Shown here in pieces: positions 11,101 through 61,148 of a stretch of 64,000 nucleotides of DNA. The position numbers were made by a program, and so were the translations under genes. Position 1 is the stretch's first letter; the number at the start of each line of letters is the position of its first letter. The notes below the pieces were generated by a model, which was not told where the DNA came from, did no database searches, and saw only the letters and a program-made list of their open reading frames with translations. The stretch is from an uncultured Candidatus Saccharibacteria bacterium (lineage in GTDB: Bacteria; Patescibacteriota; Minisyncoccia; Phycocordibacterales; Phycocordibacteraceae), in the NCBI GenBank assembly GCA_964434255.1, contig CAYSUL010000001.1, positions 181,695-245,694 of the forward strand. Direction: 5' to 3'.

Positions 11101-11121
11101 ACGAGTCAGGGTAGCACGCTA

Positions 11122-12324
11122 TTACGCGGTGATCTTGGTCACGACGCCGGCGCCGACCGTCTTACCACCTTCGCGGACGGAGAAACGGAAGTTCTCTTCG
11201 AGCGCGATAGGCGCGGTGAGCTTGACCTTGAAGGTCACGGTGTCGCCTGGCATCACCATCTCCTTGCCGTCTGGAAGGGTCACTTCGCCGGTCACGTCCG
11301 TCGTGCGGATGTAGAACTGCGGCTTGTATCCCGTGAAGAACGGCGTGTGGCGTCCGCCTTCATCCTTAGAAAGGACGTAGACCTCCGCTTCGAAGTCGGT
11401 GTGCGGGGTAACCGAACCTGACTTCGCGAGGACCTGGCCGCGGTGCACGTCTTCCTTCTTCGTACCACGGAGAAGAATACCTGCGTTGTCGCCTGCCTGG
11501 CCTTCCTGGAGCTGCTTGTTGAACATCTCGATACCGGTGACGGTCGTCTTCGCGGTTGGGTGGAGGCCGACTATTTCGACTTCCTCACCGACCTTGATAA
11601 CGCCGCGCTCGATGCGGCCCGTGATAACGGTTCCGCGACCTTCGATCGAGAAGATGTCCTCGATAGGCATGAGGAACGGCTTGTCGAGCTCGCGCTCTGG
11701 CTGCGGGAAGTACGTGTCCATGGTGTCCACGAGCTCCTTCACCTTAAGCGCCCACTGGTCGTCCGCTGAAGTCGCTTCGAGCGCCTTGAGGCCGGAACCA
11801 CGGATGACCGGGGTTGCTGCGCCGTCGTAGCCCTGCTTGGTAAGGAGTTCGCGCATCTCTTCCTCCACGAGGTCGAGCATGTCCGCGTCGTCAACCATAT
11901 CTACCTTGTTGAGGAAGATGATGAGGCGCGGCACACCAACCTGCTTGGCGAGAAGAATGTGCTCACGGGTCTGCGGCATGGCGCCGTCAGTAGCCGCGAC
12001 CACGAGGACTGCACCGTCCATCTGGGCGGCACCAGTGATCATGTTCTTGATGTAGTCAGCGTGGCCCGGCGCATCGATGTGCGCGTAGTGGCGGTTCGGT
12101 GACTCGTACTCCGAGTGGTGAAGCGCAATGGTAATACCACGCGCCTTCTCTTCCGGAGCGTTGTCGATGTTCTCGACCTTCTCTGCACGGGCCTTGTAGC
12201 CGGCTGCGGAGTTGAGGTTGAGGACGTTCAGGATAGCGGCCGTAAGGGTCGTCTTGCCGTGGTCAACGTGGCCGATGGTGCCCACGTTCATGTGCGGCTT
12301 GCTGCGATCGAATGCATCTGCCAT
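11122..12324 (-). CDS. tuf: elongation factor Tu
   Basis: 400 aa. [18 protein letters not shown] and NKVD motifs. Confidence 0.98.
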
Positions 12325-18932: not shown

Positions 18933-19001
18933 TTCGAAATGAAAACTCCCCCGTGGGAGTTAGGCACACTATATATAAAGGCCTATATAAATGCAAATTA
19001 T

Positions 19002-19442
19002 CTAGGCTTTGCCTGCTCCTTTCCTTCTCAGTCGCTCCGGAAGCTCAGAAGTACCTAGTAATAGGAGCGAGAGGAATCCATAAAGCACTGCAAGTAGGCC
19101 AGCCCACATACTCACATCATTAAGGGCAAAACCTGCAAATTTCATATGTGACAGAGCAAATAGAAGGGGTACGACCAGAATACCGCACCATAAAGAGAAG
19201 CGTGCCCATAGGCTATAAGTCCTACGAGTGGTAAAGAAGGCGAGAAGAGACGCGATAAGGAATGTAATGGAGAGGGGTAGACCTGGATCTCCTATCTCCA
19301 CTTCGTAAGGAGACCTACAAATTAAGCCTTGGGTATTCGTTAACACTTCATTGCACAGCCCGAACCATTCTGGCCATATGAGGTAAGAGGATAGGCCTGT
19401 CGCGAGAATCCCTACACCAATCAATACGTATCTGATGCTCAT
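19002..19442 (-). CDS. integral membrane protein (4 predicted TM segments)
   Basis: 146 aa and hydrophobic. First gene of the low-GC segment. Confidence 0.55.
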   Translation of the reverse strand: MSIRYVLIGVGILATGLSSYLIWPEWFGLCNEVLTNTQGLICRSPYEVEIGDPGLPLSITFLIASLLAFFTTRRTYSLWARFSLWCGILVVPLLFALSHMKFAGFALNDVSMWAGLLAVLYGFLSLLLLGTSELPERLRRKGAGKA

Positions 19443-19444
19443 GG

Positions 19445-39386: not shown

Positions 39387-41088
39387 AGAAAGTGTCGCCT
39401 GAAATGGAAACGTTGGTGAATACTGTCGTCGTGTACCCAGTCTTCGTGATAGTGATGGTGTAGTCGCTCGCTGACGAGAGACTCCCAAACGATGCCGCGC
39501 CGCATGAGGACCCTGTAATGGTGCTCGTGTAGCCGGTGCGTGCGAGCGTCACGCTCGCACCCGGTACGACGGCTCCTCCTGCGTCACGCACCCCGACAAG
39601 GATGCTGTGGGCCGTGTTGGTACCGAGTACGAGCGAACTCTCGACAACCGCCGCGGGGGCGAGCGAGTACGGAGGCATGCCGCACGCGTCCACCACGTCA
39701 TAGCCGGCCAGGTCGAGCTGATACGCATCCCATTCGAGCGAGAGCGACTTACTTGCGCTTGCGCCCGTCGTATCCGATATCTCGGTCTTATATATGGAAG
39801 CCCCGGCTCCAGTAGTCCCTACCGTCTTAGCGCCCTGGAGATCGAACGCTATGTTCGGAAGTGGGATAGGGCCGCGCCTGTAGTTCAAGTTCCAGCTATC
39901 GAGCGAGGGAGTCTCGGTCGCGAGCGATGTCGAGAGGTCGGCCGCAAGCGCAAGCGTCGGGTACGTCGTCGTCGAAATACCGCTCAGGTCTATCGGGAAG
40001 GCAGTGAAGCCCGCGACGTTCCCCGGGAGTATCGCATCGGGAAGCGGAGTACCCGCACTATCCACGACACGGACGCGCATGTTCGTGTTCACCGAGACAG
40101 AACGCACGGCCTCGACACTGAGCCAGCCGGCGAGATACGTGGGTGCCACCGATTGCGATTGCGCGGAACCACTTGCGAGGTATCCGCCCGCATCAGTCGC
40201 GAGGATAACTGAGCCGCCCGATACCGCGGCGCTCGACAGGGATGCAAGCAATGAACTATCTGCGAACGTGTCTGCGAAGCTCGCTGTCACTATCGGGGAG
40301 AACGTACGGATGGTGAGCGCAGCGAGCACGTCGATAGCGAACGTGCTCGCGGTCGTCTGGTTCTGCGCGACGGTGAGGTATCCCGGCGTCGGGTTCTGGT
40401 TCGTCGCGTCGCGTGCATAGGTCTGCGCGGTCGAGTATCCCGCCTTGGTGACCACGATGCGGTAATCGGTCGAGGTAGCGGCGCCCGGCAGGTACACGAG
40501 CCCGGCGGCGTTGCTAAAGGCAGTGAGGTTAACCGCTGGCGCGGTGCTCGGATTATCTATATCGACGGTCGCGCCCGCGATACCGGCCCCGAGCGCATCC
40601 ACCACACTTATCTGCAGCGTTCCCCCTCCGGTCGTGGTCTCGAGCCCAGCCGGTGACTGGCTCGAGATGAGTTCCACTTCGCGCGCAGTGCCGTCCGTGT
40701 AGTACGTAACGGTTATCTTCACCTGCTTGTAGTCGGTGGTGATGCCGGTCTGGTCCAGCGCCCCGAGCCCATCCGCAGGATCGTCCACATATTGGATGAA
40801 GGTCCTGACTCCGTACGAAAGATTGTTCATGGTCGTCGTCGCGGTCTGCGGTATGACACCGGCAGGGATACCTCCTACCGTTCCTATGGAATCATATGGG
40901 AGCGAACGAACGTATTCCATCTGGCTCGTCGCTATCGATGTCGCTACCGCTTTCGATTTCGCGAGCGAAGAGACGAGGAACGAGGCGCGCAGCAGTCCGA
41001 ATAGCGCGAGGAAGATGATGAGCGTAATTGCAGTACCGACGAGTACGTCGACGAGCGACATGCCGCGCGATGGAGTGCGAGGGAACAT
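39367..41088 (-). CDS. large PilV-like pseudopilin (573 aa) with carboxypeptidase-regulatory-like beta-sandwich repeats
   Basis: Start at MFPRTPSRG|MSLVDVLVGTAITLII. Repeated TKAGYSTAQTY / TKTGYTTTVF motifs. Confidence 0.6.
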   Translation of the reverse strand: MFPRTPSRGMSLVDVLVGTAITLIIFLALFGLLRASFLVSSLAKSKAVATSIATSQMEYVRSLPYDSIGTVGGIPAGVIPQTATTTMNNLSYGVRTFIQYVDDPADGLGALDQTGITTDYKQVKITVTYYTDGTAREVELISSQSPAGLETTTGGGTLQISVVDALGAGIAGATVDIDNPSTAPAVNLTAFSNAAGLVYLPGAATSTDYRIVVTKAGYSTAQTYARDATNQNPTPGYLTVAQNQTTASTFAIDVLAALTIRTFSPIVTASFADTFADSSLLASLSSAAVSGGSVILATDAGGYLASGSAQSQSVAPTYLAGWLSVEAVRSVSVNTNMRVRVVDSAGTPLPDAILPGNVAGFTAFPIDLSGISTTTYPTLALAADLSTSLATETPSLDSWNLNYRRGPIPLPNIAFDLQGAKTVGTTGAGASIYKTEISDTTGASASKSLSLEWDAYQLDLAGYDVVDACGMPPYSLAPAAVVESSLVLGTNTAHSILVGVRDAGGAVVPGASVTLARTGYTSTITGSSCGAASFGSLSSASDYTITITKTGYTTTVFTNVSISGDTFYEATFD

Positions 41089-41179
41089 GCGTCTATGATA
41101 ACGCACGCAACCGTTATGAAGCGCGTAGGAATGAGCAGTGGTGATCTGAAGAGTTATGCAGCGGAATGTGCTGGAACAC

Positions 41180-41482
41180 CTATACCTCGTATCGACTTGG
41201 ATCATTGACCTTCAGTTTTGAGAGGACTGGATTCGGTATAGCCTTCAGCGCTTCATTAATTTGAGCTTCTGGCACCAGCGTTTTTATGAAATTTTCTACA
41301 GTCTGCGCACCAGACCCAGCGCGCAAAGCAAACCGAACGGTGTTCTCTTGATCAGAGGCATTCTCGACTAGGCAGGATATTCCTTGCTCGATAGTGAACT
41401 TACGAATGCGACCTCGGAGCTTTACCCCGTGCAGTTCGGCGCAATCGCACTTAATTTCGTATATATCCCAAGAAAGAATCAT
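41180..41482 (-). CDS. hypothetical protein (low GC)
   Basis: 100 aa, A+T-rich codons. First gene of the 41.2-42.8 kb low-GC insert. No Shine-Dalgarno sequence seen. Confidence 0.35.
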   Translation of the reverse strand: MILSWDIYEIKCDCAELHGVKLRGRIRKFTIEQGISCLVENASDQENTVRFALRAGSGAQTVENFIKTLVPEAQINEALKAIPNPVLSKLKVNDPSRYEV

Positions 41483-41503
41483 GGGCTGATTCTATCAAAT
41501 GTC

Positions 41504-41530
41504 GGCTGGAGTCGGGGACGATGTTGGAAC
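41504..41530 (+). promoter_or_regulatory. Promoter cassette A: GCTGGagtcgGGGACGATGTTGGAAC
   Basis: One of three near-identical 26-28 nt motifs. TTGGAA is a -35-like hexamer. 51 nt upstream of the 41582 ATG. Confidence 0.45.
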
Positions 41531-41581
41531 CCTTATGCAACTATGTTAGGGTTCTGTCCAGAAAGAACGGAGGATCAGCTC

Positions 41582-41974
41582 ATGATCGTGGACTCTTTGA
41601 ACCAGCCAATAACACTGGACTCCCTCACGGAACAGCTCTTTCGACTGGAGAGAGCGACACCTATCCCCCAGGTTACCGACCATCGCATCGCTGCCGGATT
41701 TCTCCTTGAGCAATACGGGGACAGGACGCGTAGATTCATCAAGATTGACCGTCAGGCACGGGTGAATATCGTGATCGAATGGATACGGAAAATGAGCGTG
41801 TCGCGGCGCGAAACCATATCCACAACACAAGAAGTGGTTGCGACCCTTCTTTACCAAGATCTTGTCGAAGGTACGCCGCACATGGGGTACACCGACATGA
41901 CTCGCCTTACGCTAAACGCAAACGGAAAGCGGAAGGTCGTTCGAGAATACTTCTCAGTCAATCCCGCCGCATAA
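41582..41974 (+). CDS. hypothetical protein P1 (130 aa)
   Basis: GGAGGA Shine-Dalgarno 7 nt upstream of ATG 41582. Own terminator at 41992..42024. Confidence 0.5.
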   Translation: MIVDSLNQPITLDSLTEQLFRLERATPIPQVTDHRIAAGFLLEQYGDRTRRFIKIDRQARVNIVIEWIRKMSVSRRETISTTQEVVATLLYQDLVEGTPHMGYTDMTRLTLNANGKRKVVREYFSVNPAA

Positions 41975-41991
41975 ACTACTCACCCACGCTA

Positions 41992-42024
41992 GAAGCCCCT
42001 CACCGGAAACGGCGAGGGGTTTGC
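41992..42024 (+). terminator. Rho-independent terminator
   Basis: agcccctcacc-ggaaac-ggcgaggggtt followed by TGC. Confidence 0.55.
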
Positions 42025-42034
42025 ATGTATCCAT

Positions 42035-42060
42035 GCTGGGGCCTGGGACGATATTGGAAC
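42035..42060 (+). promoter_or_regulatory. Promoter cassette B: GCTGGggccTGGGACGATATTGGAAC -N16- TATATA
   Basis: -35-like TTGGAA, 16-nt spacer, then TATATA at 42077..42082. Confidence 0.5.
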
Positions 42061-42112
42061 TTTACTCCTCCTGCGTATATAGTGCGCCCAGAAGCAACCC
42101 TTGGAGGCTCTT

Positions 42113-42424
42113 ATGGGTCAATTGGAACCTTGGCACATCCTAGTACTCGGAGCCCTACTGTCGGCTCCCCTCATGATCGCGGCCTGGAAACAGCCCGTCG
42201 CCCCTCTGCCTGAGCTTGTTCCCTACGAGATCGCCGAAGCAGTTCAGGCATGGCTGTTCGAAATCCTCCCGCCCCAGCTCACCACGAGAGGCGGACTTCG
42301 GCTCGAAGAGAACGGGTGGGTCATCGTCATCCAGTACGAAGATCCTGCCGACCTCGCTCTCATCCCCTCTCAACGCAATGGGGTGCGGATCATTCCGGAG
42401 CAAGCCGCTCCGCTGATTTCCTGA
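42113..42424 (+). CDS. hypothetical membrane protein P2 (103 aa from MGQLEPWHILVLGALLSAPLMIAAW)
   Basis: GGAGG Shine-Dalgarno before ATG 42113 (ORF track start 42101). One TM segment. Own terminator. Confidence 0.5.
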   Translation: MGQLEPWHILVLGALLSAPLMIAAWKQPVAPLPELVPYEIAEAVQAWLFEILPPQLTTRGGLRLEENGWVIVIQYEDPADLALIPSQRNGVRIIPEQAAPLIS

Positions 42425-42443
42425 CCTACAACTGTTCGTTTGC

Positions 42444-42478
42444 GGTCGCCCGAATTCTGTCGGGCGACTTTTGCTTTT
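42444..42478 (+). terminator. Rho-independent terminator (gtcgcccga-attct-gtcgggcgac-ttttgctttt)
   Basis: Same hairpin family as the one at 42756..42790. Confidence 0.65.
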
Positions 42479-42481
42479 ATT

Positions 42482-42546
42482 GCTGGGAGTCTGGGATGAT
42501 GTTGGAAACAGACTAACATTGACATTATAGGTATAATACCTATAAT
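42482..42546 (+). promoter_or_regulatory. Promoter cassette C: GCTGGgagTCTGGGATGATGTTGGAAAC, then TTGACA -N16- TATAAT
   Basis: Conserved motif at 42482..42509. Near-consensus sigma70 promoter with TTGACA at 42519..42524 and TATAAT at 42541..42546. Confidence 0.55.
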
Positions 42547-42573
42547 CGCATTTAGATTCACGGAGATAGACCA

Positions 42574-42738
42574 ATGGCAGAGAAAACTCTCGAGGGAGAG
42601 ATACTCAAGAACATCCTGAACTACGTCGAGGAAGGCGCCGATACCACTTCCGAACCTGTGGAACCTAGTTCCCTCCTCGGAGAGCTTCAATCGACGGTCT
42701 TCGACTACGAGCATGGTAAGCCGACCGGCACCGCCTGA
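42574..42738 (+). CDS. small acidic protein P3 (54 aa, MAEKTLEGEILKNILNYVEEGADTTSEPVEPSSLLGELQSTVFDYEHGKPTGTA)
   Basis: Under 60 aa, so absent from the ORF track. GGAGAT Shine-Dalgarno. Flanked by promoter and terminator. Confidence 0.45.
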   Translation: MAEKTLEGEILKNILNYVEEGADTTSEPVEPSSLLGELQSTVFDYEHGKPTGTA

Positions 42739-42755
42739 ACCGCCATCGCCTACCA

Positions 42756-42790
42756 GAGTCGCCTGACCCTGTTAGGCGACTTTTGTTTTA
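42756..42790 (+). terminator. Rho-independent terminator (agtcgcctga-ccctg-ttaggcgact-tttgtttt)
   Basis: Followed by a degenerate fourth cassette motif, ATTGCTGGcggattaGGTATCGAACC. Confidence 0.6.
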
Positions 42791-42814
42791 TTGCTGGCGG
42801 ATTAGGTATCGAAC

Positions 42815-44032
42815 CTAGATCTTATCCGAAAGCGAGTAGATAGGAGAGATCATCGAAAGCGCGAACACGCCCACAACCCCACCAATGAAGAGCATGAGGA
42901 TAGGTTCGATGATGGTGGAGAGGTCCTTGGTACGGTCCTCGACGTCGGTCTCATAGTATTCGGCGACCTGCCCGAGCATATCCGCCACCTTACCCGTCTC
43001 CTCCCCCACCGCAATCATGTCGGCAATGAATACCGGATAGAGCTTCGGATAGTCATTGAAGGTAGAGGAAAGGGTCTCGCCCTTGCGCACGCGTGCTTCC
43101 GCTTCGGTGATGACCTTGCTGAACTTCTTCTCCCCCACGACTTCTGCTGCGATGGAGAGCGCAGAAAGCATCTCGACACCCGACGACAGCAGCGAAGAGA
43201 GGGCGCGAGCAGCACGCGCGCTATACGTCTCCTTCACCAGCTCCCCGATGATAGGGATACGGAGCGCTACGGCGACAACGATACTTCCTCCCACCTTCGT
43301 CTTGGTGAAGAGCACGAACCCTACGACGACGAGCGCGAACAGCACAAGTACGAGCACGGGATTGTTCGCCATGAAGTCGGACGCGCCGATAACCATCTTG
43401 GTGGCAGCCGGAAGCTCGACGCCGAGCTCACGGAAGGTGTTCGATAGCGTCGGCACCACGTATATGAGCATGAGGATACCGATGAGCACGACTGCAACGA
43501 GGATGATGGAAGGATAGATCATCGCGCCCTTCACCTTCTTATTCAAAGAGTTCGACCTATCCATCTGTTTCGCCACCACCTTGAGCGCCTCGGCGAGCGT
43601 TCCCGACTCCTCTCCCGCCTTGGTCATAGCGATGAAGAGGTCGGAGAAGATATTGCGGTGGAATGCGAGCGCCTCGTGGAATGCCTGGCCCGTCTTCACC
43701 TTCTCGGAGAGGTCCACGACGATGCGCTTCAGCGCCTTGTTGGTGGTCTGGCGCTCAATGACGGAGAGCGCGCGGGAGAGCGAGAGCCCGGCGGTGAGCA
43801 TGGCAGATAGGTTCTTGGTGAATGTGATGCGTTCGTCCATCTTCACCCCGCTCCCTATCTGAATGCTTGAGAGACGTGCAAACGAGAAGGTTCCGCCAGC
43901 GCCTTCCTGTACCGCGATCACGGTCAGTCCTTCTTTCTCCGCATCCGCATACACCGCGAAGCGCGATGCCGCTTCCATGGTCCGCTTCTCTTCCGTTCCA
44001 TCCTCACGCTTGAGCGTGACGCGATATTTCAT
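42815..44032 (-). CDS. pilC: type IV pilus assembly protein PilC (GspF family inner-membrane platform)
   Basis: 405 aa. Two T2SSF repeats and three TM segments. Confidence 0.85.
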   Translation of the reverse strand: MKYRVTLKREDGTEEKRTMEAASRFAVYADAEKEGLTVIAVQEGAGGTFSFARLSSIQIGSGVKMDERITFTKNLSAMLTAGLSLSRALSVIERQTTNKALKRIVVDLSEKVKTGQAFHEALAFHRNIFSDLFIAMTKAGEESGTLAEALKVVAKQMDRSNSLNKKVKGAMIYPSIILVAVVLIGILMLIYVVPTLSNTFRELGVELPAATKMVIGASDFMANNPVLVLVLFALVVVGFVLFTKTKVGGSIVVAVALRIPIIGELVKETYSARAARALSSLLSSGVEMLSALSIAAEVVGEKKFSKVITEAEARVRKGETLSSTFNDYPKLYPVFIADMIAVGEETGKVADMLGQVAEYYETDVEDRTKDLSTIIEPILMLFIGGVVGVFALSMISPIYSLSDKI

Positions 44033-44101: not shown

Positions 44102-44431
44102 TTAGGCGCGCGTCGCGCGATCCTGCGGGATGAGGCCCACAATGAGGACGCCCACGAGACCCATCGAGAGGCCAGCGAACAGATCGGAGAGATTGTCCTG
44201 TCCGGAAATCCTCAGCAGCACCGCAGCCGCGACAAGCAGCGCAAGCAGAAAGAACGTCCACCCACCCGCGCCGGCGACTTTATTCGTCCGGATCAGGAGC
44301 GCAGACCACAGGAGTGCGGCAAGCGCGGCGCCCCAAAACCATGCGGGCATCATGCCGTCGACGATGCTGAATGCCAGACATCCGAGCGCCAGGAAGCCAG
44401 CGAGCACCGCTGCGAGCATACCTCTAACCAT
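44102..44431 (-). CDS. small integral membrane protein
   Basis: 109 aa with 3 TM segments, between pilB and pilC. Confidence 0.45.
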   Translation of the reverse strand: MVRGMLAAVLAGFLALGCLAFSIVDGMMPAWFWGAALAALLWSALLIRTNKVAGAGGWTFFLLALLVAAAVLLRISGQDNLSDLFAGLSMGLVGVLIVGLIPQDRATRA

Positions 44432-44520: not shown

Positions 44521-46317
44521 TTATTCCGTGACCGCCCGCAACACCTCCTCGATAGAGGTAATCCCGCGCGCCGACTTATACAGACCATCCTCAAGCATCG
44601 TGAGCATGCCCTCTTTTCGTGCCTGCTCCTCTATAGCTTCCGAGGTCGCGCTATGCAAAATGAGCTCGCGTATGGACGAAGAGACCGAGAGTATCTCGTG
44701 TATACCGATACGGCTCTTATACCCCTCTTCGCATTCGCTGCTTGGCACCGGCTTATAGAACGGCAAGTCATCTATCTTCACGCCCGCCTTAACCAGTTTC
44801 TCCTCCTTGAGAGAATTGAGCGCCGCCTCGAACTTATCCTCGTGCGCTATCTTCGCGCGTTCCTCCGCATCGAGCGCATACTGCTCCTTCCCTTCGCAGA
44901 GCTTACGCACCAGACGCTGACCGACGATGACACGGAGCGTGGAGACGAGGAGGAACGGCTCGACACCCATGTCGATGAGGCGCGGTATCGCGCCTGCTGC
45001 CGAGTTCGTGTGGATGGTGGAAAGCACGAGGTGGCCCGTGAGCGCCGCATTGATAGCGAGCGCCGCCGTCTCACCGTCGCGAATCTCTCCCACCATGATG
45101 ATGTCCGGGTCCTGACGCACGAGGGAGCGGAGCCCGTTCGCGAACGTGAATCCGATGGCCGGGTTCACCTGCGTCTGATTCACGCGCTTCATCTGGTACT
45201 CGATAGGGTCCTCGATGGTCGAGATGTTCACGTCCGGCGTGTTCAGGATATCGAGGATGGTATACAGCGTCGTCGTCTTACCCGAACCGGTCGGTCCCGA
45301 CACGAGGATGATGCCAGTCGTGGACTTCGTCGCCTTATGAATGTTCTCCATCGTCTCTCCATGGAAACCGAGCACGTCGAGCGTGAAGCCCTCCCCTCCC
45401 GTCTCGCGAAGGAGGCGCATGACTATCTTCTCGCCGTAGTAGGTCGGGAGAAGGGATACACGGAACGAGACCGCTTCAGCCTCCGCTTCCATCTTGAAGC
45501 GTCCGTCCTGCGGAAGGCGTTTCTCGTCGAGCTTGAGGTTGGCCAGAACTTTAATGCGGGCGACGATGCCGGCGGCCGCGTTCCTTGGCAGCGTCATCGC
45601 GTCATGAAGGATACCGTCGATGCGGTAGCGGACGAGCACTTCAGTCTCGGAGTGCTCGATATGAATATCGGACGCGCTCTGGATGATGGCGTGACGGAGC
45701 AGTGTGTCGACGATTCTAACGATCGGCAAATCCTCCGCCATCTTCTTGAGATCCTCGCCTGACGCGTCGTCGCCCGTCCCTTCCTTAACCAGATTAAGGC
45801 GTCCTGCTTCGGTGGAGATAAGGTCACCGAACTCCTCCTTAAGGGACTTCTGGTACTGCAGGAGCACGAACTTGAGCGACTCATCATCGGTGAGGCGCGG
45901 GAGTATCTTGAGCCCGGTCTTCTTCCGTACGGAGTCTATGGAGATGAGGTCCTCCGTATCGAGCATGGCGACCTCGAGGTCTCCGCCGTTCTTGCGGAAC
46001 GCGATGATGGAGTGGGTGCGCGCGATAGGCTCCGGGATGAGGGAGAGCACCTCGAGCGGTATCTTCCTGTCCTTCAGGTTCACGAACGGGATGCCGAGCA
46101 CATAGGCTTTGATGCGACGGAGCGCATCTTGCGAGAGCGTTCCGCGGGACACGAGGATATCGCCGACGGACTGCTTCTTCTCCTTCGCCTCATTGTCCGC
46201 ATCCTCGACATCCTTGCGCGCCACGAGGCCCGAGTCGAGGATGAACTCTTTCAATTCGCTTTCTGATACTTGCATAGCCGTTGAGTAATGAAAGTATAAC
46301 GCGCCGATGCAATACAT
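44521..46317 (-). CDS. pilB: type IV pilus assembly ATPase PilB (GspE family)
   Basis: 598 aa. T2SE N-terminal domain, Walker A GPTGSGKTTTLY and the EDPIEY Asp box. Confidence 0.9.
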   Translation of the reverse strand: MYCIGALYFHYSTAMQVSESELKEFILDSGLVARKDVEDADNEAKEKKQSVGDILVSRGTLSQDALRRIKAYVLGIPFVNLKDRKIPLEVLSLIPEPIARTHSIIAFRKNGGDLEVAMLDTEDLISIDSVRKKTGLKILPRLTDDESLKFVLLQYQKSLKEEFGDLISTEAGRLNLVKEGTGDDASGEDLKKMAEDLPIVRIVDTLLRHAIIQSASDIHIEHSETEVLVRYRIDGILHDAMTLPRNAAAGIVARIKVLANLKLDEKRLPQDGRFKMEAEAEAVSFRVSLLPTYYGEKIVMRLLRETGGEGFTLDVLGFHGETMENIHKATKSTTGIILVSGPTGSGKTTTLYTILDILNTPDVNISTIEDPIEYQMKRVNQTQVNPAIGFTFANGLRSLVRQDPDIIMVGEIRDGETAALAINAALTGHLVLSTIHTNSAAGAIPRLIDMGVEPFLLVSTLRVIVGQRLVRKLCEGKEQYALDAEERAKIAHEDKFEAALNSLKEEKLVKAGVKIDDLPFYKPVPSSECEEGYKSRIGIHEILSVSSSIRELILHSATSEAIEEQARKEGMLTMLEDGLYKSARGITSIEEVLRAVTE

Positions 46318-54936: not shown

Positions 54937-55094
54937 AGTAAATAAGCCATTTATAATCGTTCGCCCGGTACCTACTACCGACATTACACCAAAAGTAGGT
55001 GGAAAAGCAATGAAGACGATTTTGATGGACTAAAGACTAAGACGTGGCGGGTGAATATTGCTTTCGTAGGCCTAGACCTTAGTGAATTAGAGTG

Positions 55095-55165
55095 TGCGGG
55101 ATAGGAGAATCGGACTCCTGCTCTCAGTTTGGAAAACTGATGTTCTACCATTAAACTAATCCCGC
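55095..55165 (-). tRNA. tRNA-Gly (anticodon UCC)
   Basis: Cloverleaf with 7-bp acceptor GCGGGAT/ATCCCGC and anticodon loop TTTCCAA. T-loop reads TCCGATT, so C at position 55 is unusual. Confidence 0.6.
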
Positions 55166-55235
55166 TTCGCCAAAGAGAATACCATAGCCAGCGCATGAGC
55201 TGTATTTTTGAACGGCTCCGGTGTAGCGTTCATAT

Positions 55236-56303
55236 ATGCCCGCTCTCCAAGGCGTCATCTCCGCGCTTTCTGCGCTTATCATCACGCTTAACTCGCTTTA
55301 TGGAGCGCAGATGGGTTCAACTACCCCGCAAGTTACTGGTATCTTCGGGCCCGCGGCAACGAGCACGGTCTCGGTTCCTGCACCCGAAATCCCGAAGCCT
55401 ACCGTACCCAAGCCCGCTACCTCGGGCGGACTCGCTCCCCTGCTCCCTCACGCTCCCTCGACTGACCTTGCGGTAGCACTCGGTACGCTTCGAGGCGCGA
55501 TTGTGAATATCGTCTGCATATCCAAGGACACGAAGATTCGTTCGATGTCCGGTAGTGGCGTCATCTTCGACCCTAAAGGCCTCATCCTCACCAATAGCCA
55601 CATCGCGCAGTACTACATGCTGAAAGAGGTACTGCCTGAGGGCGCTATTACCTGCATCATTCGCGCAGGAAGCCCCGCACAGGCCGCATACAGGGCAGAA
55701 GCGGCGTATGTATCAAGTGAATGGATACAGGACAACCCAAGCACCCTGGTCGCGACCGTGGCACGCGGCACCGGAGAGCATGACTTTGCCGTGCTCGCGA
55801 TAACAGGGAGCGCGTCACCCATTCCCCTTCCAGGCTCCTTTCCATACGTTCCCCTCACCAAAGCAACGCCGAAACTCAAGGACAATGTGGGTATCGGCTC
55901 GTATGGTGCACAGAATCTCACTTCCAAGCAGATACAGAGCTCCCTTCTCCCCACACTCGTGTTCGCTCAAGTGAAGAGCATCTACACGTTTGACTCAACG
56001 AGTATCGATCTCCTCACCCTAAGCGGGAGCGCGGCCGGCCAACACGGCTCTTCGGGCGGCGGCATCGTGAACGCGAATGGTCAGCTTATGGGAATAATCA
56101 CAACCGCAAGCGATAAGGGTGAGTTCGGCAACCGCGAGGTGCGCGTAGTCACCGCAGGACATATCCGCAGCAGCTTCAAGGAGGATAGCGGTCAGGACTT
56201 CGACTCTTATTTCAAGAATGGCAGCATTGACGCCTTCGTTTCAGTCTTTGTGGACGACGCGAATCGCATGGGCAAGAAGCTCCTTTCGACGCTTCAACAT
56301 TAG
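55236..56303 (+). CDS. trypsin-like (S1/S1C) serine protease, secreted or membrane-anchored
   Basis: 355 aa. LTNSHI (His), D, and GQHGSSGGGIVNANGQLMGI (Ser) catalytic triad. Confidence 0.7.
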   Translation: MPALQGVISALSALIITLNSLYGAQMGSTTPQVTGIFGPAATSTVSVPAPEIPKPTVPKPATSGGLAPLLPHAPSTDLAVALGTLRGAIVNIVCISKDTKIRSMSGSGVIFDPKGLILTNSHIAQYYMLKEVLPEGAITCIIRAGSPAQAAYRAEAAYVSSEWIQDNPSTLVATVARGTGEHDFAVLAITGSASPIPLPGSFPYVPLTKATPKLKDNVGIGSYGAQNLTSKQIQSSLLPTLVFAQVKSIYTFDSTSIDLLTLSGSAAGQHGSSGGGIVNANGQLMGIITTASDKGEFGNREVRVVTAGHIRSSFKEDSGQDFDSYFKNGSIDAFVSVFVDDANRMGKKLLSTLQH

Positions 56304-56304
56304 T

Positions 56305-56375
56305 CGGGGTGCGGAGAATTGAACTCCGTCTATCTGCTCCCAAAGCAGACGTACTACCGGTATACGACACCCCGT
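56305..56375 (-). tRNA. tRNA-Pro (anticodon UGG)
   Basis: Acceptor CGGGGTG/CACCCCG, anticodon loop TTTGGGA and T-loop TTCAATT. Confidence 0.8.
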
Positions 56376-56663
56376 TCACTGCATCCTACCAGCTTTAATG
56401 GATTTGCGGGAGGTGTTCTGTTTTAGATCTCACACCACGCACGTGACTACACCAGAGTCTCCCATTTATGGTTTCGACCTGGTTAGGGGACTTCATTGAG
56501 AGATGCTGCTGACCGAGACGGTGACTGAGAATAGAACGGCCTGAATGCTAAGTATTCTTCGGACTCGCCATTAGAAGTCTTCTTTGTCTTATGTCCTTTA
56601 TCCCCACTGTGAACACCTTTGTCCCCAACGCAAAACGGCCCTGAAGGGCCGTTTTGCCTCGTG

Positions 56664-56734
56664 TGCGGATAGGGAGAATCGAACTCCCGACTGATCCTTG
56701 GCAAGGATCCGTTTTACCACTAAACCATATCCGC
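56664..56734 (-). tRNA. tRNA-Gly (anticodon GCC)
   Basis: Acceptor GCGGATA/TATCCGC, anticodon loop TTGCCAA and T-loop TTCGATT. Confidence 0.85.
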
Positions 56735-56775
56735 TTCGCTCGGAATACTAACACAATCGCTATCTCTTTTTCTAG

Positions 56776-56847
56776 TGCTCCCGCCAGGACTCGAACCTGG
56801 AACGACAGTTCCGAAGACTGTTGTGATATCCGTTTCACTACAGGAGC
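56776..56847 (-). tRNA. tRNA-Arg (anticodon UCG)
   Basis: Acceptor GCTCCTG/CGGGAGC, anticodon loop CTTCGGA and T-arm CCAGG-TTCGAGT-CCTGG. Confidence 0.8.
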
Positions 56848-56906
56848 GTATTCAGATATTACGCGAGAGCTAGGAGAATGACCACACGCATACTAGTATT
56901 TTCTCA

Positions 56907-58370
56907 ATGCACTTCCCTGTTCCGCTTGAGGTGAGGGCCGTATCTGACGGACTTCGAAAAGAAGGTTTCGAAGCTTATCTGGTTGGCGGCTGCGTGCGCG
57001 ACCTCCTCCTTAGTCGCGAACCCAAGGACTGGGACGTAACGACGAATGCTAAGCCCGAGGATATCCAGCGCATATTCCCTGAATCCTTCTATGAAAACGA
57101 ATTCGGGACTGTAGGGGTAAAGACAGGCTCGAAAGAGCCGAAGCTCGCGGTCATCGAAGTAACTCCCTACCGAACGGAAACCGGATATTCAGATAAGCGG
57201 CGTCCGGACGAGGTCATATTCGGTGAAAGCCTTGAAGACGACTTGGCTCGCCGGGACTTCACCATCAATGCTATCGCACTTGATGAGTCTAAAGGACATC
57301 TCGTTGATCCATATAAAGGACAGGTAGACATCGAGGCTCGTGTCTTGCGGACAGTCGGGAATGCTGAGGATCGCTTCGAAGAGGATGGTCTTCGTCTTAT
57401 GCGGGCTGTCCGATTGGTCGCCGAGCTCGAGTTCGCGCTCGACGCTGACACGGCCGCAGCTATACAGAATAAGGGTCAAAACCTCAAGCTCATTTCACGT
57501 GAAAGAATCAGGGACGAGTTTGTCCGGATACTCGAGTCCAGGCAGCCAATGATGGCTCTTACACTTTCCCAACAGCTTGGGATCCTTGAGTATATCGCCC
57601 CGGACCTTACGCGCGGCATAGGCATCGAGCAGAACCAGGCTCATAGCTACGATGTTTTCGAGCATCTTATGCGGGCCGTACAGCACGCAGCAGATAAGGA
57701 CTGGGACTTCGATATCCGCCTCGCTGCCCTATTCCATGATGTATCTAAGCCTGAAACTCGCCGCTGGTCAGACGAAAAGAAGGATTGGACATTCCATGGT
57801 CATGAAGTGGTTGGTTCACGTGTAACACGCAAAGCACTCGAAGATATGCGGTTTTCACGTGAAACTATAGAGAAAGTGACCAAATTAGTGCGCTGGCACA
57901 TGTTCTTCTCGGATCCTGACCAGATAACATTATCGGCCGTTCGCCGCATGATAGTGAATGTCGGAGAGGAGAATATATGGGATCTGCTCAACCTCCGTAT
58001 TTGCGACCGCATCGGAACAGGGCGTCCGAAAGAACAGCCATTCCGCTTCCGAAGGTATAAGGCCATGGTTGAAGAGGCCCTGCGCGACCCGATCAGCGTG
58101 GCAATGCTTAAGACAGACGGGAGCAGCATTATGGAAAAGTTCCACGTGCAACCTGGACCGAAAATAGGCTATATTCTCCACGCTCTACTCGAAGAGGTTC
58201 TCGAGGATCCCCAGAAGAACAATGAGGCATATTTGGATACTCGGACGGAGAGCCTGTTGCAGCTCTCAGACAGCGAACTTAAGGAATTGGGTGATTCGGG
58301 TAAGAAACGAAGAGAAATTGAAGAGGAGAGGGAAGTACGGGAAATCCTCGAAAAGCATCACGTTGGCTAG
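56907..58370 (+). CDS. cca: CCA-adding tRNA nucleotidyltransferase with HD domain
   Basis: 487 aa. GGCVRDLLL...DWD head domain and HD motif LFHDVSKP. Confidence 0.85.
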   Translation: MHFPVPLEVRAVSDGLRKEGFEAYLVGGCVRDLLLSREPKDWDVTTNAKPEDIQRIFPESFYENEFGTVGVKTGSKEPKLAVIEVTPYRTETGYSDKRRPDEVIFGESLEDDLARRDFTINAIALDESKGHLVDPYKGQVDIEARVLRTVGNAEDRFEEDGLRLMRAVRLVAELEFALDADTAAAIQNKGQNLKLISRERIRDEFVRILESRQPMMALTLSQQLGILEYIAPDLTRGIGIEQNQAHSYDVFEHLMRAVQHAADKDWDFDIRLAALFHDVSKPETRRWSDEKKDWTFHGHEVVGSRVTRKALEDMRFSRETIEKVTKLVRWHMFFSDPDQITLSAVRRMIVNVGEENIWDLLNLRICDRIGTGRPKEQPFRFRRYKAMVEEALRDPISVAMLKTDGSSIMEKFHVQPGPKIGYILHALLEEVLEDPQKNNEAYLDTRTESLLQLSDSELKELGDSGKKRREIEEEREVREILEKHHVG

Positions 58371-58910
58371 GGAATGGGCTGTTCCACGTGAAAAGCGCCT
58401 GTATAAAAGGCTAAAAGCACTACCGGAGTAGTGCTTTTAGCTTGTGCTTATTATAAACATTTCACGTGAAAACTCTATGAAATAAGAAAGAGCCTCGTTT
58501 TTAGCGCGGAAACAAGGTTTCTAGGCTAAAGACGAGGCTCTTTATTTGTGGCTACTTTGCGACCCGGGGTGTAGGACCTAAATGGGGCTTGGGGCTTTGT
58601 GGTTGGCCTACTGGAGGAAAACGGGGGCCGCATTTGGCATGATGATCGAAAGAACTGCGCTTTCACGTGGAACCGGACCGGACCCAGTATTTATCAGGAG
58701 ATACGCTCCGAAGACGGTGGAAGGGCCAGAACGCAACGTTATGCGCCTAACCTGGAAAGAGCTCGCAAGGAACAGCCGAAGCGCGGAAGAGTCCGCGTAT
58801 CATGGCATGATCCGCGAGCCCCTCCACGTCCTCAAGTAATAGTAGGTTATGTCTAGGACAGAGTAAAGGACACTATCCGCAGATGTGTGTATAACTATGT
58901 CTCTTATGTC

Positions 58911-59705
58911 CTATAGGACAATGGAGATGGGGCAGTGGTCGGAGCCCATAACCTGAGGGTGGATGTCCGCTTCTTTTATATGCTTCTTGAAGCTCTTCGA
59001 GACGAAGAGATAATCTATACGCCACCCCACATTCCGTTCGCGAGCTCCTCCGAAATTGCTCCACCATGTGTAGAGTCCATTCCCTTGCTTGAACATGCGA
59101 AGCGTATCGACGAATTCAGCGGCCAATATCTGGTCGATGCCTTCCCGCTCTTCGGCAGTAAAGCCTTTCATTCCCTCGTTCTCCTTGGGACGGGCGAGAT
59201 CATCTGCCGTATGCGCAACGTTCAAATCACCGCCAAAAATAACAGGCTTCTCCTCTTCAAGCCGCTTCATATACTCCAGAAACGCTGGATCCCAGTGCTT
59301 GTGGCGAAGCCCTAAACGGGACAAATCATCCTTGGCGTTCGGGGTATATACAGAAACTACATAGAAATCGTGCATATCTGCCGCGACAATTCGGCCTTCC
59401 TGATTAGGGTCACCGTAGCCATCGTCCGCGAGACCATGCTTTTCTGCGATGTCTTCAGGCATGCCGAAGATCACATCGTTCGGGGTCATTTTGGTGAATA
59501 TGGCCGTTCCGCTATATCCTTTGCGACCTTTCGAGGAGCTCCAGAATTCTTCGTAGTCAAGGAGGTCGAGAGGGGATTGCTCCTGCTCTGCCTTGGTCTC
59601 CTGGAGAAGGAGTATGTCCGGCTTGTACTTCTTAATGAAGGGCATGAACTCGTCCTTTCTATGGACGGCCCGTATCCCGTTCACATTCCAAGACATGATG
59701 CGCAT
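58911..59705 (-). CDS. xth: exodeoxyribonuclease III (AP endonuclease)
   Basis: 264 aa. MRIMSWNVNG, LQETK and SDHCP motifs. Confidence 0.92.
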   Translation of the reverse strand: MRIMSWNVNGIRAVHRKDEFMPFIKKYKPDILLLQETKAEQEQSPLDLLDYEEFWSSSKGRKGYSGTAIFTKMTPNDVIFGMPEDIAEKHGLADDGYGDPNQEGRIVAADMHDFYVVSVYTPNAKDDLSRLGLRHKHWDPAFLEYMKRLEEEKPVIFGGDLNVAHTADDLARPKENEGMKGFTAEEREGIDQILAAEFVDTLRMFKQGNGLYTWWSNFGGARERNVGWRIDYLFVSKSFKKHIKEADIHPQVMGSDHCPISIVL

Positions 59706-59722
59706 GTGCGCATTCTAGCAAA

Positions 59723-60628
59723 CTACCTCTGTTTCGAATGGAATTTCTTGTGCACCTCGCGAAGATGCGCATCGGTCACGTGCGTATATATCTGGGTGGT
59801 GTTGATAGAGGCATGCCCTAGAAGGGCCTGAACACTGCGTAAATCGGCCCCGTTAGAGAGTAGGTCAGTAGCGAAGGAGTGGCGAAGGACGTGAGGAGTG
59901 ACCTTCTTGGTTATACCGGCCTTAGCGGCATAGAACTTCATGGTGCGCTCGACCGAGCGGGGAGTGAGGCGTGACGGCGTCTTCTTACTATCCTTCCCGA
60001 CCTTCGGAATGTTCACGAAGAGTGCTTCTTCCATGTCCTTACGGGCCTTCATGTAAGCGCGCGCTGCGTCCTTCGCGGCAGGGGACAGGAATACGACCCG
60101 TACCTTGTCACCCTTTCCGCGCACAGAGAGATCATCCCGCGACAGGTCGATATCGGAGTTGAGAGCGCAGAGCTCGGAAACGCGCAGGCCTGTAGAGAAC
60201 AGCATTTCCATGATCGCCTTGTCACGGAGCGCCTTCTCGCTATCTCCATCGGTAGCACTAATCAATCGCTCAAGCTCGGCGCTTGAAATAAGGTCTATCT
60301 GACGCTCGGGAAGCTTCGCCAGCTCTATACGCTCAGGATTAAGGCCATCGATTCCTCGTTTCCTAAGATATTTAAGGAATGCGCGCAGCGCGATGAGGTA
60401 GTAATTCTGCGTGCGACGCTTCATTGTGCCTGCAGTACCGGGCTGACGGTTGAGCCAGAGCCTGAATTCCCGGATTTTGTCCTCAGTTATGTCAGGAATC
60501 TCCTTTATCTCCATCTGAGTAAAGAAACGGTCGAGATAATGTTCATAATTCTCGACCGTTTTGATCGCGCGACCGCGCTCGATCTCGGTATATTCGAGGA
60601 ACTGGCGGAGCATAGAGCGAGCATCCAT
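59723..60628 (-). CDS. tyrosine site-specific recombinase XerC/XerD family
   Basis: Start at MDARSMLRQFLEY. R...HxxR...Y catalytic residues (LRHSFATDLL, LGHASINTTQIYTHV). Confidence 0.85.
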   Translation of the reverse strand: MDARSMLRQFLEYTEIERGRAIKTVENYEHYLDRFFTQMEIKEIPDITEDKIREFRLWLNRQPGTAGTMKRRTQNYYLIALRAFLKYLRKRGIDGLNPERIELAKLPERQIDLISSAELERLISATDGDSEKALRDKAIMEMLFSTGLRVSELCALNSDIDLSRDDLSVRGKGDKVRVVFLSPAAKDAARAYMKARKDMEEALFVNIPKVGKDSKKTPSRLTPRSVERTMKFYAAKAGITKKVTPHVLRHSFATDLLSNGADLRSVQALLGHASINTTQIYTHVTDAHLREVHKKFHSKQR

Positions 60629-60731
60629 GTGGGCAGTGTAGCATCCGTAACGTCGTAAAATCTTGGCAGGGGAGACCGTCCGCACCCCACAACACTTGCG
60701 CTTTTAATCAAGATGTGGTAAGGTAGGGCTA

Positions 60732-60998
60732 ATGCTAACGAAACGCGTGAAGACGGCCGTTATTAAAGAAACGGCAGTGCATCCTACTGATACCGGCTCA
60801 GCTCCGGTCCAGGTGGCTATCCTTACCCGCAAGATTGAGGAGCTTACCGCCCACCTCAAGAAGAACAAGAAGGATTTCCACTCTCGCCGTGGCCTTCTCC
60901 AGATGGTCGCTGACCGTCGCGCGCATCTTCGCTACCTCGAAAAGAACAATAAGCGCGGCTACAACGCACTTATCAAGAAGCTTGGTTTGAAGAAGTAG
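60732..60998 (+). CDS. rpsO: 30S ribosomal protein S15
   Basis: 88 aa. [12 protein letters not shown]...[16 protein letters not shown] pattern. Confidence 0.93.
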
Positions 60999-61148
60999 GA
61001 CTCGCGGGCACACAAGCCCGCGATTCTCGTTTCATAAGCAGGTGCTAGACTATATATGACGTAGCCGGTGGCTACCATCATTTTAATGAATCAGGGGAGT
61101 GAGGGTTATTTTCAATACAACCTGCTTCCTATCTAATTACATACCGTT

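Follow-up and report, generated by a model that had tools for sequence, protein, structure and literature searches.

The stretch of DNA under study (hereafter the window) comprises 64,000 nucleotides (nt) of a contig from an uncultured Candidatus Saccharibacteria bacterium, and this analysis concerns a set of small gene cassettes at 41170-42820 that lies within a type IV pilus gene cluster on the minus strand. A profile of guanine plus cytosine (GC) content across the window places 41100-42900 at 0.47-0.53, versus ~0.58-0.64 in the flanks, in agreement with an earlier reading of the letters made without database searches (the sequence-only reading), which had described a low-GC insert in the pilus cluster. 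That reading had also described three near-identical elements of ~26 nt and three small open reading frames (ORFs) of 130, 103, and 54 amino acids (aa), all of which are present as described. The insert and its borders comprise the following features:

Starting at 41088, minus strand: three prepilin-like (pseudopilin) genes
41095..41100, minus strand: conserved -10-like box TATCAT of the pseudopilin operon, part of GTGCGTTATCAT-N6-ATG; the permissive gap has its left limit here
41170..41177, plus strand: remnant boundary site GCTGG/AAC at the left edge of the P0 cassette; a fifth copy, internally deleted
41180..41482, minus strand: cargo of cassette 1, P0, 100 aa, predicted ferredoxin-like fold, without a promoter of its own; same direction as pilC and the tRNA fragment
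41505..41531, plus strand: boundary site A, GCTGGAGTCGGGGACGATGTTGGAACC, profile score 27.6 bits
41524..41552, plus strand: promoter-like module on site A, TTGGAA-N17-TAGGGT followed by TCTGTCCAG
41582..41974, plus strand: cargo of cassette 2, P1, 130 aa, no known family
41996..42023, plus strand: P1 terminator-like hairpin, CCCCTCACCG-GAAA-CGGCGAGGGG-TTTG (hairpin 41996-42019)
42035..42061, plus strand: boundary site B, GCTGGGGCCTGGGACGATATTGGAACT
42054..42081, plus strand: P2 promoter-like hexamers, TTGGAA-N16-TATATA
42113..42424, plus strand: cargo of cassette 3, P2, 103 aa, one N-terminal hydrophobic segment
42444..42469, plus strand: P2 intrinsic terminator
42476..42509, plus strand: boundary site C, TTTTATTGCTGGGAGTCTGGGATGATGTTGGAAAC
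42519..42546, plus strand: P3 promoter, TTGACA-N16-TATAAT, 12/12 consensus
42574..42738, plus strand: cargo of cassette 4, P3, 54 aa, acidic; this cassette varies between strains
42755..42783, plus strand: P3 intrinsic terminator, stem paralogous to that of P2
42792..42820, minus strand: terminal site D, a 29-nt tRNA-Gln 3' fragment that takes in the discriminator, the acceptor 3' strand, and the T arm; it overlaps the stop codon of pilC
42815..44032, minus strand: pilC (T2SSF family), the conserved flank

The 15-nt core of the repeated element, GGGAYGATRTTGGAA, occurs in three exact copies in the window (41515, 42045, and 42493), all on the plus strand. No other match with two or fewer mismatches was detected in the 64 kb, those with three mismatches occurred at chance frequency only, and a repeat search independently recovered the 26-nt family at 41505, 42035, and 42483. 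Loci from other contigs are designated by L numbers, and in one of these (L235) the position homologous to 41170-41177 holds a full site, TTGCTGG GTGTCTGGGACGATGTTGG AATCG-CTA(stop). Because the P0 cassette in L235 bears a full site at this position, the 41170-41177 remnant can be read as a site that lost its inner 19 nt, and P0 as a fourth cassette. The insert therefore holds four cassettes where the sequence-only reading had counted three, and the stretch at 42790-42820 that it had taken for a fourth, degenerate copy of the element is instead a 29-nt fragment of a tRNA-Gln 3' end (25/29 identities). The expression signals that it had listed are present: each plus strand ORF in the window possesses its own promoter-like hexamers and terminator, including the consensus promoter of P3 and the two paralogous terminators of P2 and P3. 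The P1 hairpin was seen by eye in the sequence and has a T-run that is too short for the terminator scanner.

Metagenome contigs were scanned with an exact 16-mer (GGGAYGATGTTGGAAC), which recovered at least 120 loci and thus yields a lower bound on the distribution of the site. About half of these were lone chance matches inside GC-rich coding DNA; the others have a much longer common context. In the consensus of 82 copies, conservation extends from position -13 to position +21, counted from GGGA (TT-GCTGG-S-N-GTCT-GGGACGATGTTGGAAC-C-TTTTT), which describes a site of ~35 nt, TTGCTGG-N6-GGGACGATGTTGGAAC-CTTTTT, with profile scores that are bimodally distributed. When loci later fetched by protein homology are included, at least 130 sites were identified in at least 66 loci. 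Among the matches listed, sites are co-oriented in all 27 loci with multiple copies (64 independent comparisons), are spaced by a median of 566 nt (range 209-2679 nt), and enclose a single ORF of at least 60 aa in 50 of 64 inter-site intervals; within this same set, the main ORF runs in the direction of the site in 26 cassettes and in the opposite direction in 38 of the 64. ORFs of the opposite direction are compact, with a stop codon that touches or runs into the T-rich right edge of a site and a start codon 8-35 nt from the next, and ORFs of the same direction are preceded by ~46 nt and followed by ~52 nt, leaving room for a promoter and a terminator. The 6-nt spacer within the site is specific to the array (e.g., CCCTAT in L071, GAGGGT in L065, and CTGTCT in L095), and the part of the site that does not resemble a tRNA, CGATGTTGGAAC, is almost invariant across contigs with GC contents of 0.27-0.64. 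No secondary structure was predicted for the 40-nt site on either strand (0 to -0.3 kcal/mol, z about +0.6), and no inverted repeats at the window sites were reported by the repeat search. The most densely populated array described here, L242, holds 11 co-oriented sites in 6.2 kb, 10 of which score 37.7-40.8 bits. The arrays that carry P0 and P2 homologs came to light through protein homology, without use of the motif, and so provide confirmation of the site that does not depend on the exact-match scan.

Decayed or half sites (e.g., TTGCTGGGAATCTGGGACGA/GATCCGAATGG) were observed between accessory genes in L035 (12618-12650 and 13470-13500) and L238 (601-633 and 1673-1700), in regions that hold P1 and P0 homologs. 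Judging from such remnants, older arrays appear to lose their sites. A look-alike of the site was also encountered: the 16-mer with flanking bases (GTCTGGGACGATGTTGGAACCTTC) recurs as coding sequence for VWDDVGTFDGRPWRG, which we take to be a C5-methyltransferase motif, in viral L162, L207, L221, L200, and ~30 others. A phage origin of the site was rejected on this basis, as the 77 viral matches include 35 with site-like scores and all of these represent the one VWDDVGTFDGRPWRG coding stretch in GC-rich viral contigs. Metagenome loci L117 and L140 carry the same viral-type stretch and were excluded; this look-alike could contaminate motif-based searches for the site.

A tRNA-Gln (TTG or CTG) was identified by ARAGORN beside the array in 11 loci among the matches listed, always on the strand opposite to the sites, which places the arrays directly after the 3' end of the tRNA. 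This isoacceptor family accounts for 15 of the 35 tRNAs found in site-bearing loci, and its 3' ends gave the highest mean local score when compared to the site (19.3 versus 11-17 for other tRNAs). The alignment of site and tRNA-Gln (GCTGG-GAG-(T/A)-CT-(A)-GGGA-[CGATGT]-T(G/C)GAACC) takes in the T stem together with the acceptor 3' strand and the discriminator, and the site has 5-6 additional bases in the T-loop part; in L122, the flank TTTTATT is also common to the site and the tRNA-Gln end. Site D of the window (minus strand) agrees with the 3'-terminal 29 nt of the L041 tRNA-Gln at 25 positions and scores 21 against tRNA-Gln versus 10 against the best non-Gln tRNA. It overlaps the pilC stop codon at a common ATCTAG, is itself conserved in L005 and L037, and occupies the position held by a whole tRNA-Gln gene in other arrays. 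No tRNA-Gln gene was detected in the 64-kb window. An array on an unrelated contig with a GC content of 0.47 (L153) likewise lies beside pilC and ends in a similar tRNA fragment. The second array in the genome of L005 ends in GTGCTGTCGGTATCGAACC beside a Peptidase_M23 gene; this fragment is shorter than site D and showed no specific closeness to tRNA-Gln when compared in the same way. That the site might be a copy of a tRNA encoded in the window itself was rejected, as it has no similarity to the four tRNAs found there (Gly twice, Pro, and Arg).

In most relatives (pilC 62-70% identical), a pseudopilin gene follows pilC within 20-200 nt. This gap measures 1.7 kb in the window, 2.9 kb in L005 (pilC 98% identical in aa), 3.3 kb in L006 (86% in aa), and 0.7-0.9 kb in L029, L031, and L032, and its gene content is different in each enlarged lineage. 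Because the gap is enlarged only in some lineages and with differing genes, the insert is derived and variable, which is the outcome of the synteny comparison that the sequence-only reading had proposed. L005 and L006 carry inserts of their own that differ from that of the window and also hold the motif, which is antisense to the adjacent gene in L006. A same-species contig, L037, which is a variant from the population of the window (SRR13723393/94/95), carries P0, P1, and P2 together with four motif copies on one strand; where the window has P3, it encodes two minus strand ORFs, one for a low-molecular-weight (LMW) phosphatase and the other 97 aa long and hydrophobic by its look. Its identity with the window extends from 41190 to 42507, the right edge of site C, and resumes at 42787 with the TTGCTGG of site D. 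Between these points, a 279-nt P3 unit in the window is replaced in L037 by 792 nt that comprise two cassettes and one site. Homology with L005 ends at 41118 and resumes at 42792. Elsewhere, the arrays L242 and L243, which derive from replicate samples taken at a single well (ERZ1292623 and ERZ1292643), share 99.8% identity over 2517 nt, with divergence setting in right after a site. The difference between the window and L037 is at the end proximal to the tRNA fragment, which fits the prediction of the tRNA-island accretion model that variability is greatest next to the tRNA (tycheposons; 10.1101/2020.12.28.424599).

A family of ~99-aa ORFs, hydrophobic by sequence, recurs in the pilC-pseudopilin gap of L005 (10742-11041, minus strand), L006 (~11023-11321, plus strand), and L029. 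It has the sense of pilC in L006 and L029; the L005 member runs the other way and lies between two sites. It could be either an ancestral pilus-associated gene or a cassette.

None of P0-P3 had a significant match in Pfam, PHROG, NCBIfam, or PADLOC, the best being PADLOC PDC-M17B for P0 (E = 0.004, 14.9 bits); the sequence-only reading had recognized none of its three proteins. P0 belongs to a family of more than 187 homologs of ~100 aa and 57-100% identity, and the few named sources are Patescibacteria or Paceibacterota. Its AlphaFold2 model (predicted local distance difference test score 89.8) matched generic ferredoxin folds only. A P0 homolog (75% identical in aa) is encoded in the genome of L005, 350 kb from pilC, within the second array (L235), where it is flanked by two full sites in the same geometry as in the window. 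Three homologs were identified for P1 (52-98% identity, with many invariant columns); the P1 hairpin is conserved with the homolog in L036, and homology stops ~10 nt before the position of the site. P2 also has three homologs. One of these (95% in aa) lies between two sites in L242, where its neighbors differ from those in the window, and another (69% in aa) lies between two sites in Parcubacteria bacterium C7867-007 (L240); a promoter-like stretch (CTGCGTATATAGTGC) and the terminator accompany P2 in both. Measured from site to site, the P2 cassette of the window and that of L242 share 91% nt identity. Within the species, P2 of the window is only 94% identical to that of L037, whereas the neighboring cassettes are 99% and the flanks 98.5-99.4% identical, which points to a recent exchange of the P2 unit. 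No homolog of P3 was detected in any fetched locus.

Cargo of the other arrays is likewise low in GC and includes an LMW phosphatase, DUF5677, DUF1697, a haem-oxygenase-like protein, and many uncharacterized small proteins. Going by the look of their N termini and not by a family search, further cargo presumably includes a GNAT acetyltransferase, a NUDIX hydrolase, a HAD hydrolase, and a Phd/RelE pair. The suggestion that the insert is a modular, integron-like stack is strengthened by these results, given that the insert is variable, its cassettes differ between strains, and the same cassettes occur in other arrays. Nothing was found in favor of effector/immunity, pilus-associated, or phage-moron functions, which had been offered in the same breath.

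The L235 array is located at 464134-480436 of a 640,007-nt contig from the genome of the closest relative and contains four sites that score 31-33 bits and a weaker copy at 12.9 bits. It adjoins a Peptidase_M23 gene downstream of a tRNA-synt_1c (GluRS/GlnRS-type) gene, and its cassettes include a GNAT protein, a 198-aa protein, P0, and a small ORF that seemingly spans the membrane. This contig (JAZKIU010000001.1) carries at least two arrays. Further accessory genes in L235 that lack recognizable sites encode AHSA1, OmdA, a methyltransferase, a 2'-5' RNA ligase, and a glyoxalase. In L236 (7631-8306) and L237, a P0 homolog lies ~300 nt downstream of tRNA-Ala(TGC) with no recognizable site, and the intervening DNA holds an apparent partial repeat of the tRNA-Ala 3' end (ATCCTGTACGGTC). 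These two loci may represent a different attachment (att) system with the same P0 cargo.

Collectively, the family of sites, their strict co-orientation, the connection with tRNA-Gln, the recurrence of cassettes, and the breakpoints at site edges make it likely that 41170-42820 is an array of four mini-cassettes (P0-P3) assembled by tandem site-specific accretion, which lacks an integrase, is related to tRNA and transfer-messenger RNA (tmRNA) islands and to cis-mobilizable elements (CIMEs), and works in an integron-like manner. The array would have been built in the gap between pilC and the pseudopilin-operon promoter and would end in the tRNA-Gln 3' fragment next to pilC. New cassettes would accumulate beside this tRNA-type end, with one copy of the site retained per cassette. 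We suggest that the crossover most likely falls in or beside the common TTGCTGG block, because exchange there leaves the body of the tRNA intact. This block is common to the internal sites, the real tRNA ends, and the terminal fragment of the window, and exchange in or beside it would account for the hybrid at 42790-42820. Cassettes directed away from the tRNA or from pilC would bring their own promoter and terminator, as P1-P3 of the window appear to do, and those in the direction of the tRNA are compact and promoterless, as in integrons.

Several observations weigh against this interpretation. The enzyme, the crossover point, and an excised circular intermediate are components that we infer. 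No recombinase was detected in or near any array in a search of 420 kb of site-bearing loci with a 106-sequence Xer-family hidden Markov model (HMM), although serine recombinases and transposases were not searched systematically. Because the metagenome scan required an exact 16-mer, conservation of the core is partly a product of construction. The window array adjoins a fragment of tRNA-Gln and not a tRNA gene, and a P1 homolog in L036 and P0 homologs in L236 and L238 have no recognizable adjoining site. The internal sites are also not exact copies of the local tRNA-Gln 3' end, in that additional bases are present and neither the acceptor nor the T-stem positions would pair with the 5' half of the tRNA. 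The extra bases and unpairable stem bases mean that internal sites cannot be simple displaced tRNA ends; as judged from the alignments, they are mimics of the tRNA-Gln end rather than copies of it.

The 420-kb HMM search returned the recombinase gene of the window itself and one weak match in a doubtful locus. The former, at 59723..60685 on the minus strand and 17 kb from the array, encodes an Xer-type tyrosine recombinase (Pfam Phage_integrase and SAM_1; NCBIfam XerA/XerD-like, 242 bits); the window ORFs tested included no other identified recombinase. A phmmer search with this protein found no match among the ORFs of site-bearing loci, and all-against-all clustering of 454 ORFs revealed no recurrent recombinase neighbor and yielded housekeeping neighbors only (pilC, dnaX, ftsEX, prfB, and lexA). 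Individual arrays other than that of the window adjoin dnaX, ftsEX, prfB, lexA, mnmA, or Peptidase_M23. We regard the Xer-type protein as a candidate only for a recombinase that acts on the sites in trans.

An alternative is that the element is a promoter or operator, either a common -35/UP element or the target of a regulator or alternative sigma factor that co-regulates small genes, and we consider this improbable even though it is locally reasonable for plus strand cassettes. Each copy in the window precedes a plus strand ORF, and 16-18 nt separate TTGGAA from a TAnnnT hexamer. In a subfamily of sites, moreover, a fixed downstream module (N17-TAGGGT/TAGGTT-TCTGTC(C/T)AG) stands before ORFs that are not related to each other; this subfamily includes copy A of the window, L114, L152, L153, L105, L120, L235, and L242. 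In this N17-TAGGGT-TCTGTCCAG subfamily, TTGGAA probably serves as the -35 box, and some sites thus probably drive transcription. Outside of it, the distance from the site to a -10-like hexamer ranges from 4 to 21 nt, the closest TATA-like hexamer in L005 and L006 being found at 4-6 nt or 21 nt. Another group (including copy C of the window, L051, L083, and L122) carries a canonical TTGACA 8-15 nt after the site, which in copy C belongs to a separate, perfect sigma-70-type promoter. All sites of an array share one orientation, but ORF direction varies (26 same and 38 opposite), and two L037 sites run within a few nt into the stop codon of a convergent ORF; the site hence lacks the fixed position and orientation relative to gene starts that characterize a promoter or operator. 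It is also confined to one locus in the 64-kb window, and a promoter leaves both the homology to tRNA-Gln and the breakpoints at the sites unexplained. The proposal in the sequence-only reading that the element is a shared promoter or co-regulatory signal therefore does not account for conservation of the motif as a whole and may hold for the one subfamily.

The sites could instead be scars of larger, integrase-bearing elements (phage-, integrative and conjugative element (ICE)-, or tycheposon-like) that repeatedly inserted at tRNA-Gln and departed, each time depositing an att copy with a little cargo; the cassettes would then be fixed remnants that now move by homologous recombination only. 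Accretion next to the tRNA in the absence of integrases fits both the growth of tycheposon islands and the CIME concept, and decayed or deleted sites do occur (41170-41177 of the window, L035, and L238). We nonetheless judge this unlikely, since neutral scars should drift and CGATGTTGGAAC is near-invariant over GC contents of 0.27-0.64 and in arrays found independently of the motif (L242). The units are regular and mostly single-gene (median spacing 566 nt), the same cassette occurs with identical boundaries in different arrays and hosts, and no full-size element was seen in the 66 loci among the matches listed. More remote still is the possibility that no dedicated recombinase operates and that DNA taken up through type IV pilus competence is integrated by RecA-type recombination anchored on the 35-nt sites or core flanks. 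The breakpoints between the window and L005, which fall in or near core flanks (41118 and 42792), could represent allelic replacement of the whole gap, and breakpoints inside identical sites fit homologous and site-specific exchange alike. Sites of 35 nt are near the lower limit for efficient RecA-type exchange, however, and such recombination leaves unexplained the choice of a tRNA-Gln-like anchor, the fixed polarity from tRNA-Gln 3' ends in 11 loci, and the conservation of the site across very different genomes.

Other identities for the element were tried and rejected. The GG/GC spacing is off by one on inspection for a sigma-54 promoter (TGGCAC-N5-TTGC), and no consistently spaced CGT was found that could form the -10 of an extracytoplasmic function (ECF)-type promoter with a GGAAC -35. 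A DNA uptake sequence was discounted on finding only three copies in 64 kb, all in one locus. A specific link to type IV pili is not supported either: the only arrays outside the window lineage that adjoin pilus genes, among the matches listed, are L153 (pilC) and L095 (a pilT-like gene).

When compared to known systems, the array resembles tandem tRNA/tmRNA islands in its anatomy; it works like an integron but lacks what defines one. Integrons and their sedentary chromosomal forms use attC sites, which are imperfect palindromes of 57-141 nt that fold into hairpins with R''/L''-L'/R' boxes (GTTRRRY), and clusters of attC sites without an integrase are known as CALINs (clusters of attC sites lacking integron-integrases). 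As in these systems, cassettes are dense and mostly single-gene, with one site each in one orientation (27/27 loci; 50/64 intervals), and sites within an array resemble each other more than those of other arrays. Cassettes in the direction of the anchor are promoterless with the site right after the stop codon, cargo comprises small enzymes and uncharacterized small proteins, and variability is greatest at the proximal end. In contrast to integrons, no intI, attI, or cassette promoter (Pc) was identified, with no tyrosine recombinase in the array or flanks. The site here is also only 35 nt, unstructured, and asymmetric, with a core (GTTGGAA) that does not fit GTTRRRY, and an attC-like folded site was rejected for want of secondary structure. 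A further difference is that ~40% of cassettes are reversed and have their own promoter and terminator, and that the anchor is a tRNA-Gln 3' end.

Small integrase-less modules are also known from the pdif modules of Acinetobacter plasmids and from integrative mobile elements exploiting Xer (IMEX) at dif, both of which have sites of ~28 nt and are moved by housekeeping Xer proteins. An Xer site consists of 28 nt with two inverted 11-nt arms and a 6-8-nt center; pdif sites alternate in orientation, and IMEX are located at the replication terminus. The cassettes described here are similarly small and integrase-less, and the sole recombinase identified among the tested window ORFs is Xer-type, but all sites are direct and on inspection their arms are not inverted repeats. 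A dif or IMEX at the terminus was rejected, as cumulative GC skew declines steadily over the whole window without a switch at 41-43 kb, and inverted arms are lacking.

Islands at tRNA and tmRNA genes share more with the array. In Dehalococcoides, ssrA islands carry an adjacent conserved 15-bp motif that does not align with ssrA, and some units without an integration module have been discussed as cis-mobilizable elements (PMC3146451); the concept of accretion among ICEs, integrative and mobilizable elements (IMEs), and CIMEs has been reviewed for streptococci (PMC5704250). Apparent similarities to these islands include arrays downstream of the 3' end of a small-RNA gene, as in the 11 loci with a tRNA-Gln, units bounded by a direct repeat that resembles this end, and an element-specific conserved motif beside the repeat that does not align with the RNA gene. 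As in CIMEs, integrase-less units retain att sites and have cargo with a GC content below that of the host. Units here differ in being mostly single genes (median 566 nt), with up to 11 in 6 kb, whereas described islands combine multi-gene integration modules with cargo, and no integrase-bearing member was detected among the matches listed in 66 loci with a tyrosine-recombinase profile as the only probe. The repeat is furthermore a diverged tRNA mimic with extra bases that is conserved across many lineages of the phylum, and arrays also occur beside tRNA fragments apart from any tRNA gene, as in the window. Tycheposons of Prochlorococcus, which encode a tyrosine or large serine recombinase, usually replication genes, and cargo of up to 10 kbp or more (10.1101/2020.12.28.424599), resemble the arrays in their streamlined host genome, flexible genes beside tRNAs, partial tRNA copies that separate insertions, and highest heterogeneity next to the tRNA. 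They are unlike them in that the units here are single-gene and no recombinase or replication domains were found in the scanned cassette proteins.

We found no description of the motif, of cassette arrays, or of tRNA-Gln islands in the candidate phyla radiation (CPR) in the searchable literature, which is itself incomplete. Extending the interpretation beyond the window, we tentatively propose, at a confidence well below that given to the window array, that Patescibacteria (CPR) possess a phylum-wide integron-like cassette system. It would combine an unstructured att site of ~35 nt that mimics tRNA-Gln with a trans-acting recombinase (possibly a housekeeping Xer-type enzyme), would stack cassettes at tRNA-Gln and at secondary sites in tRNA fragments, and would exchange them across lineages of very different GC content. 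Genomes of Patescibacteria measure only ~0.6-1 Mb. If such a system exists, it could be one of the chief ways in which accessory genes enter and leave such small genomes, and the 35-nt site would be a simple marker with which to map the flexible gene pool in metagenomes. It would also supply a concrete recombination substrate to try against candidate recombinases and might offer genetic tools a natural landing pad in a group that has just begun to be tractable, and it would represent a second, independently evolved answer to the integron problem that follows the logic of tRNA-type att sites. A survey attributed up to 13% of Patescibacteria genome length to horizontal transfer, with no mention of tRNAs, integrases, direct repeats, or cassettes (PMC12455944).

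A search with pilC recovered 30 loci among one-per-species genomes, 28 of which bear the names of candidate phyla. The names comprise Patescibacteria, Paceibacterota, Parcubacteria, Saccharibacteria, Minisyncoccia, and Taylorbacteria, in addition to one Bacillota and one 'uncultured bacterium', and the window genome belongs to the Patescibacteria/Paceibacterota. Two further genes of the pilus cluster precede pilC on the minus strand:

44521-46317, minus strand: pilB
44102-44431, minus strand: 109-aa ORF, hydrophobic by sequence, 3' of pilB

Nearly all relatives (L008-L034; window 41088-41108) carry GTGCGYTATCAT 5-6 nt before the pseudopilin ATG, which suggests that this sequence is a conserved and nearly leaderless promoter of the pseudopilin operon, separate from pilB-pilC. 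Two more stretches of lower GC (0.48-0.54) were noted in the window at 19000-22000 and 55000-61000, in which no boundary sites were found; the second of these includes the gene of the Xer-type recombinase (59723-60685) along with four tRNA genes (55094-56847) and two Exo_endo_phos genes. No Rfam-type RNA family was detected at 40900-43000 even at E values of up to 10, the best match being far below its gathering score. Relatives possess a conserved hairpin RNA of ~85 nt directly 3' of pilC on the pilC sense strand (CTGCTTCGTTGCGG...CGTAC-loop-GTACG...CCGCGCCTCGCATC), as in L007 (6591-6767), L011 (9219-9389), L012 (9213-9396), and L023 (9213-9406). This RNA corresponds to no Rfam family and shows compensatory changes in 14 of its 26 predicted pairs. 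It lies between the tRNA-like fragment and the pilC stop codon in L153, and it is missing from the window, where the cassette array holds its position.

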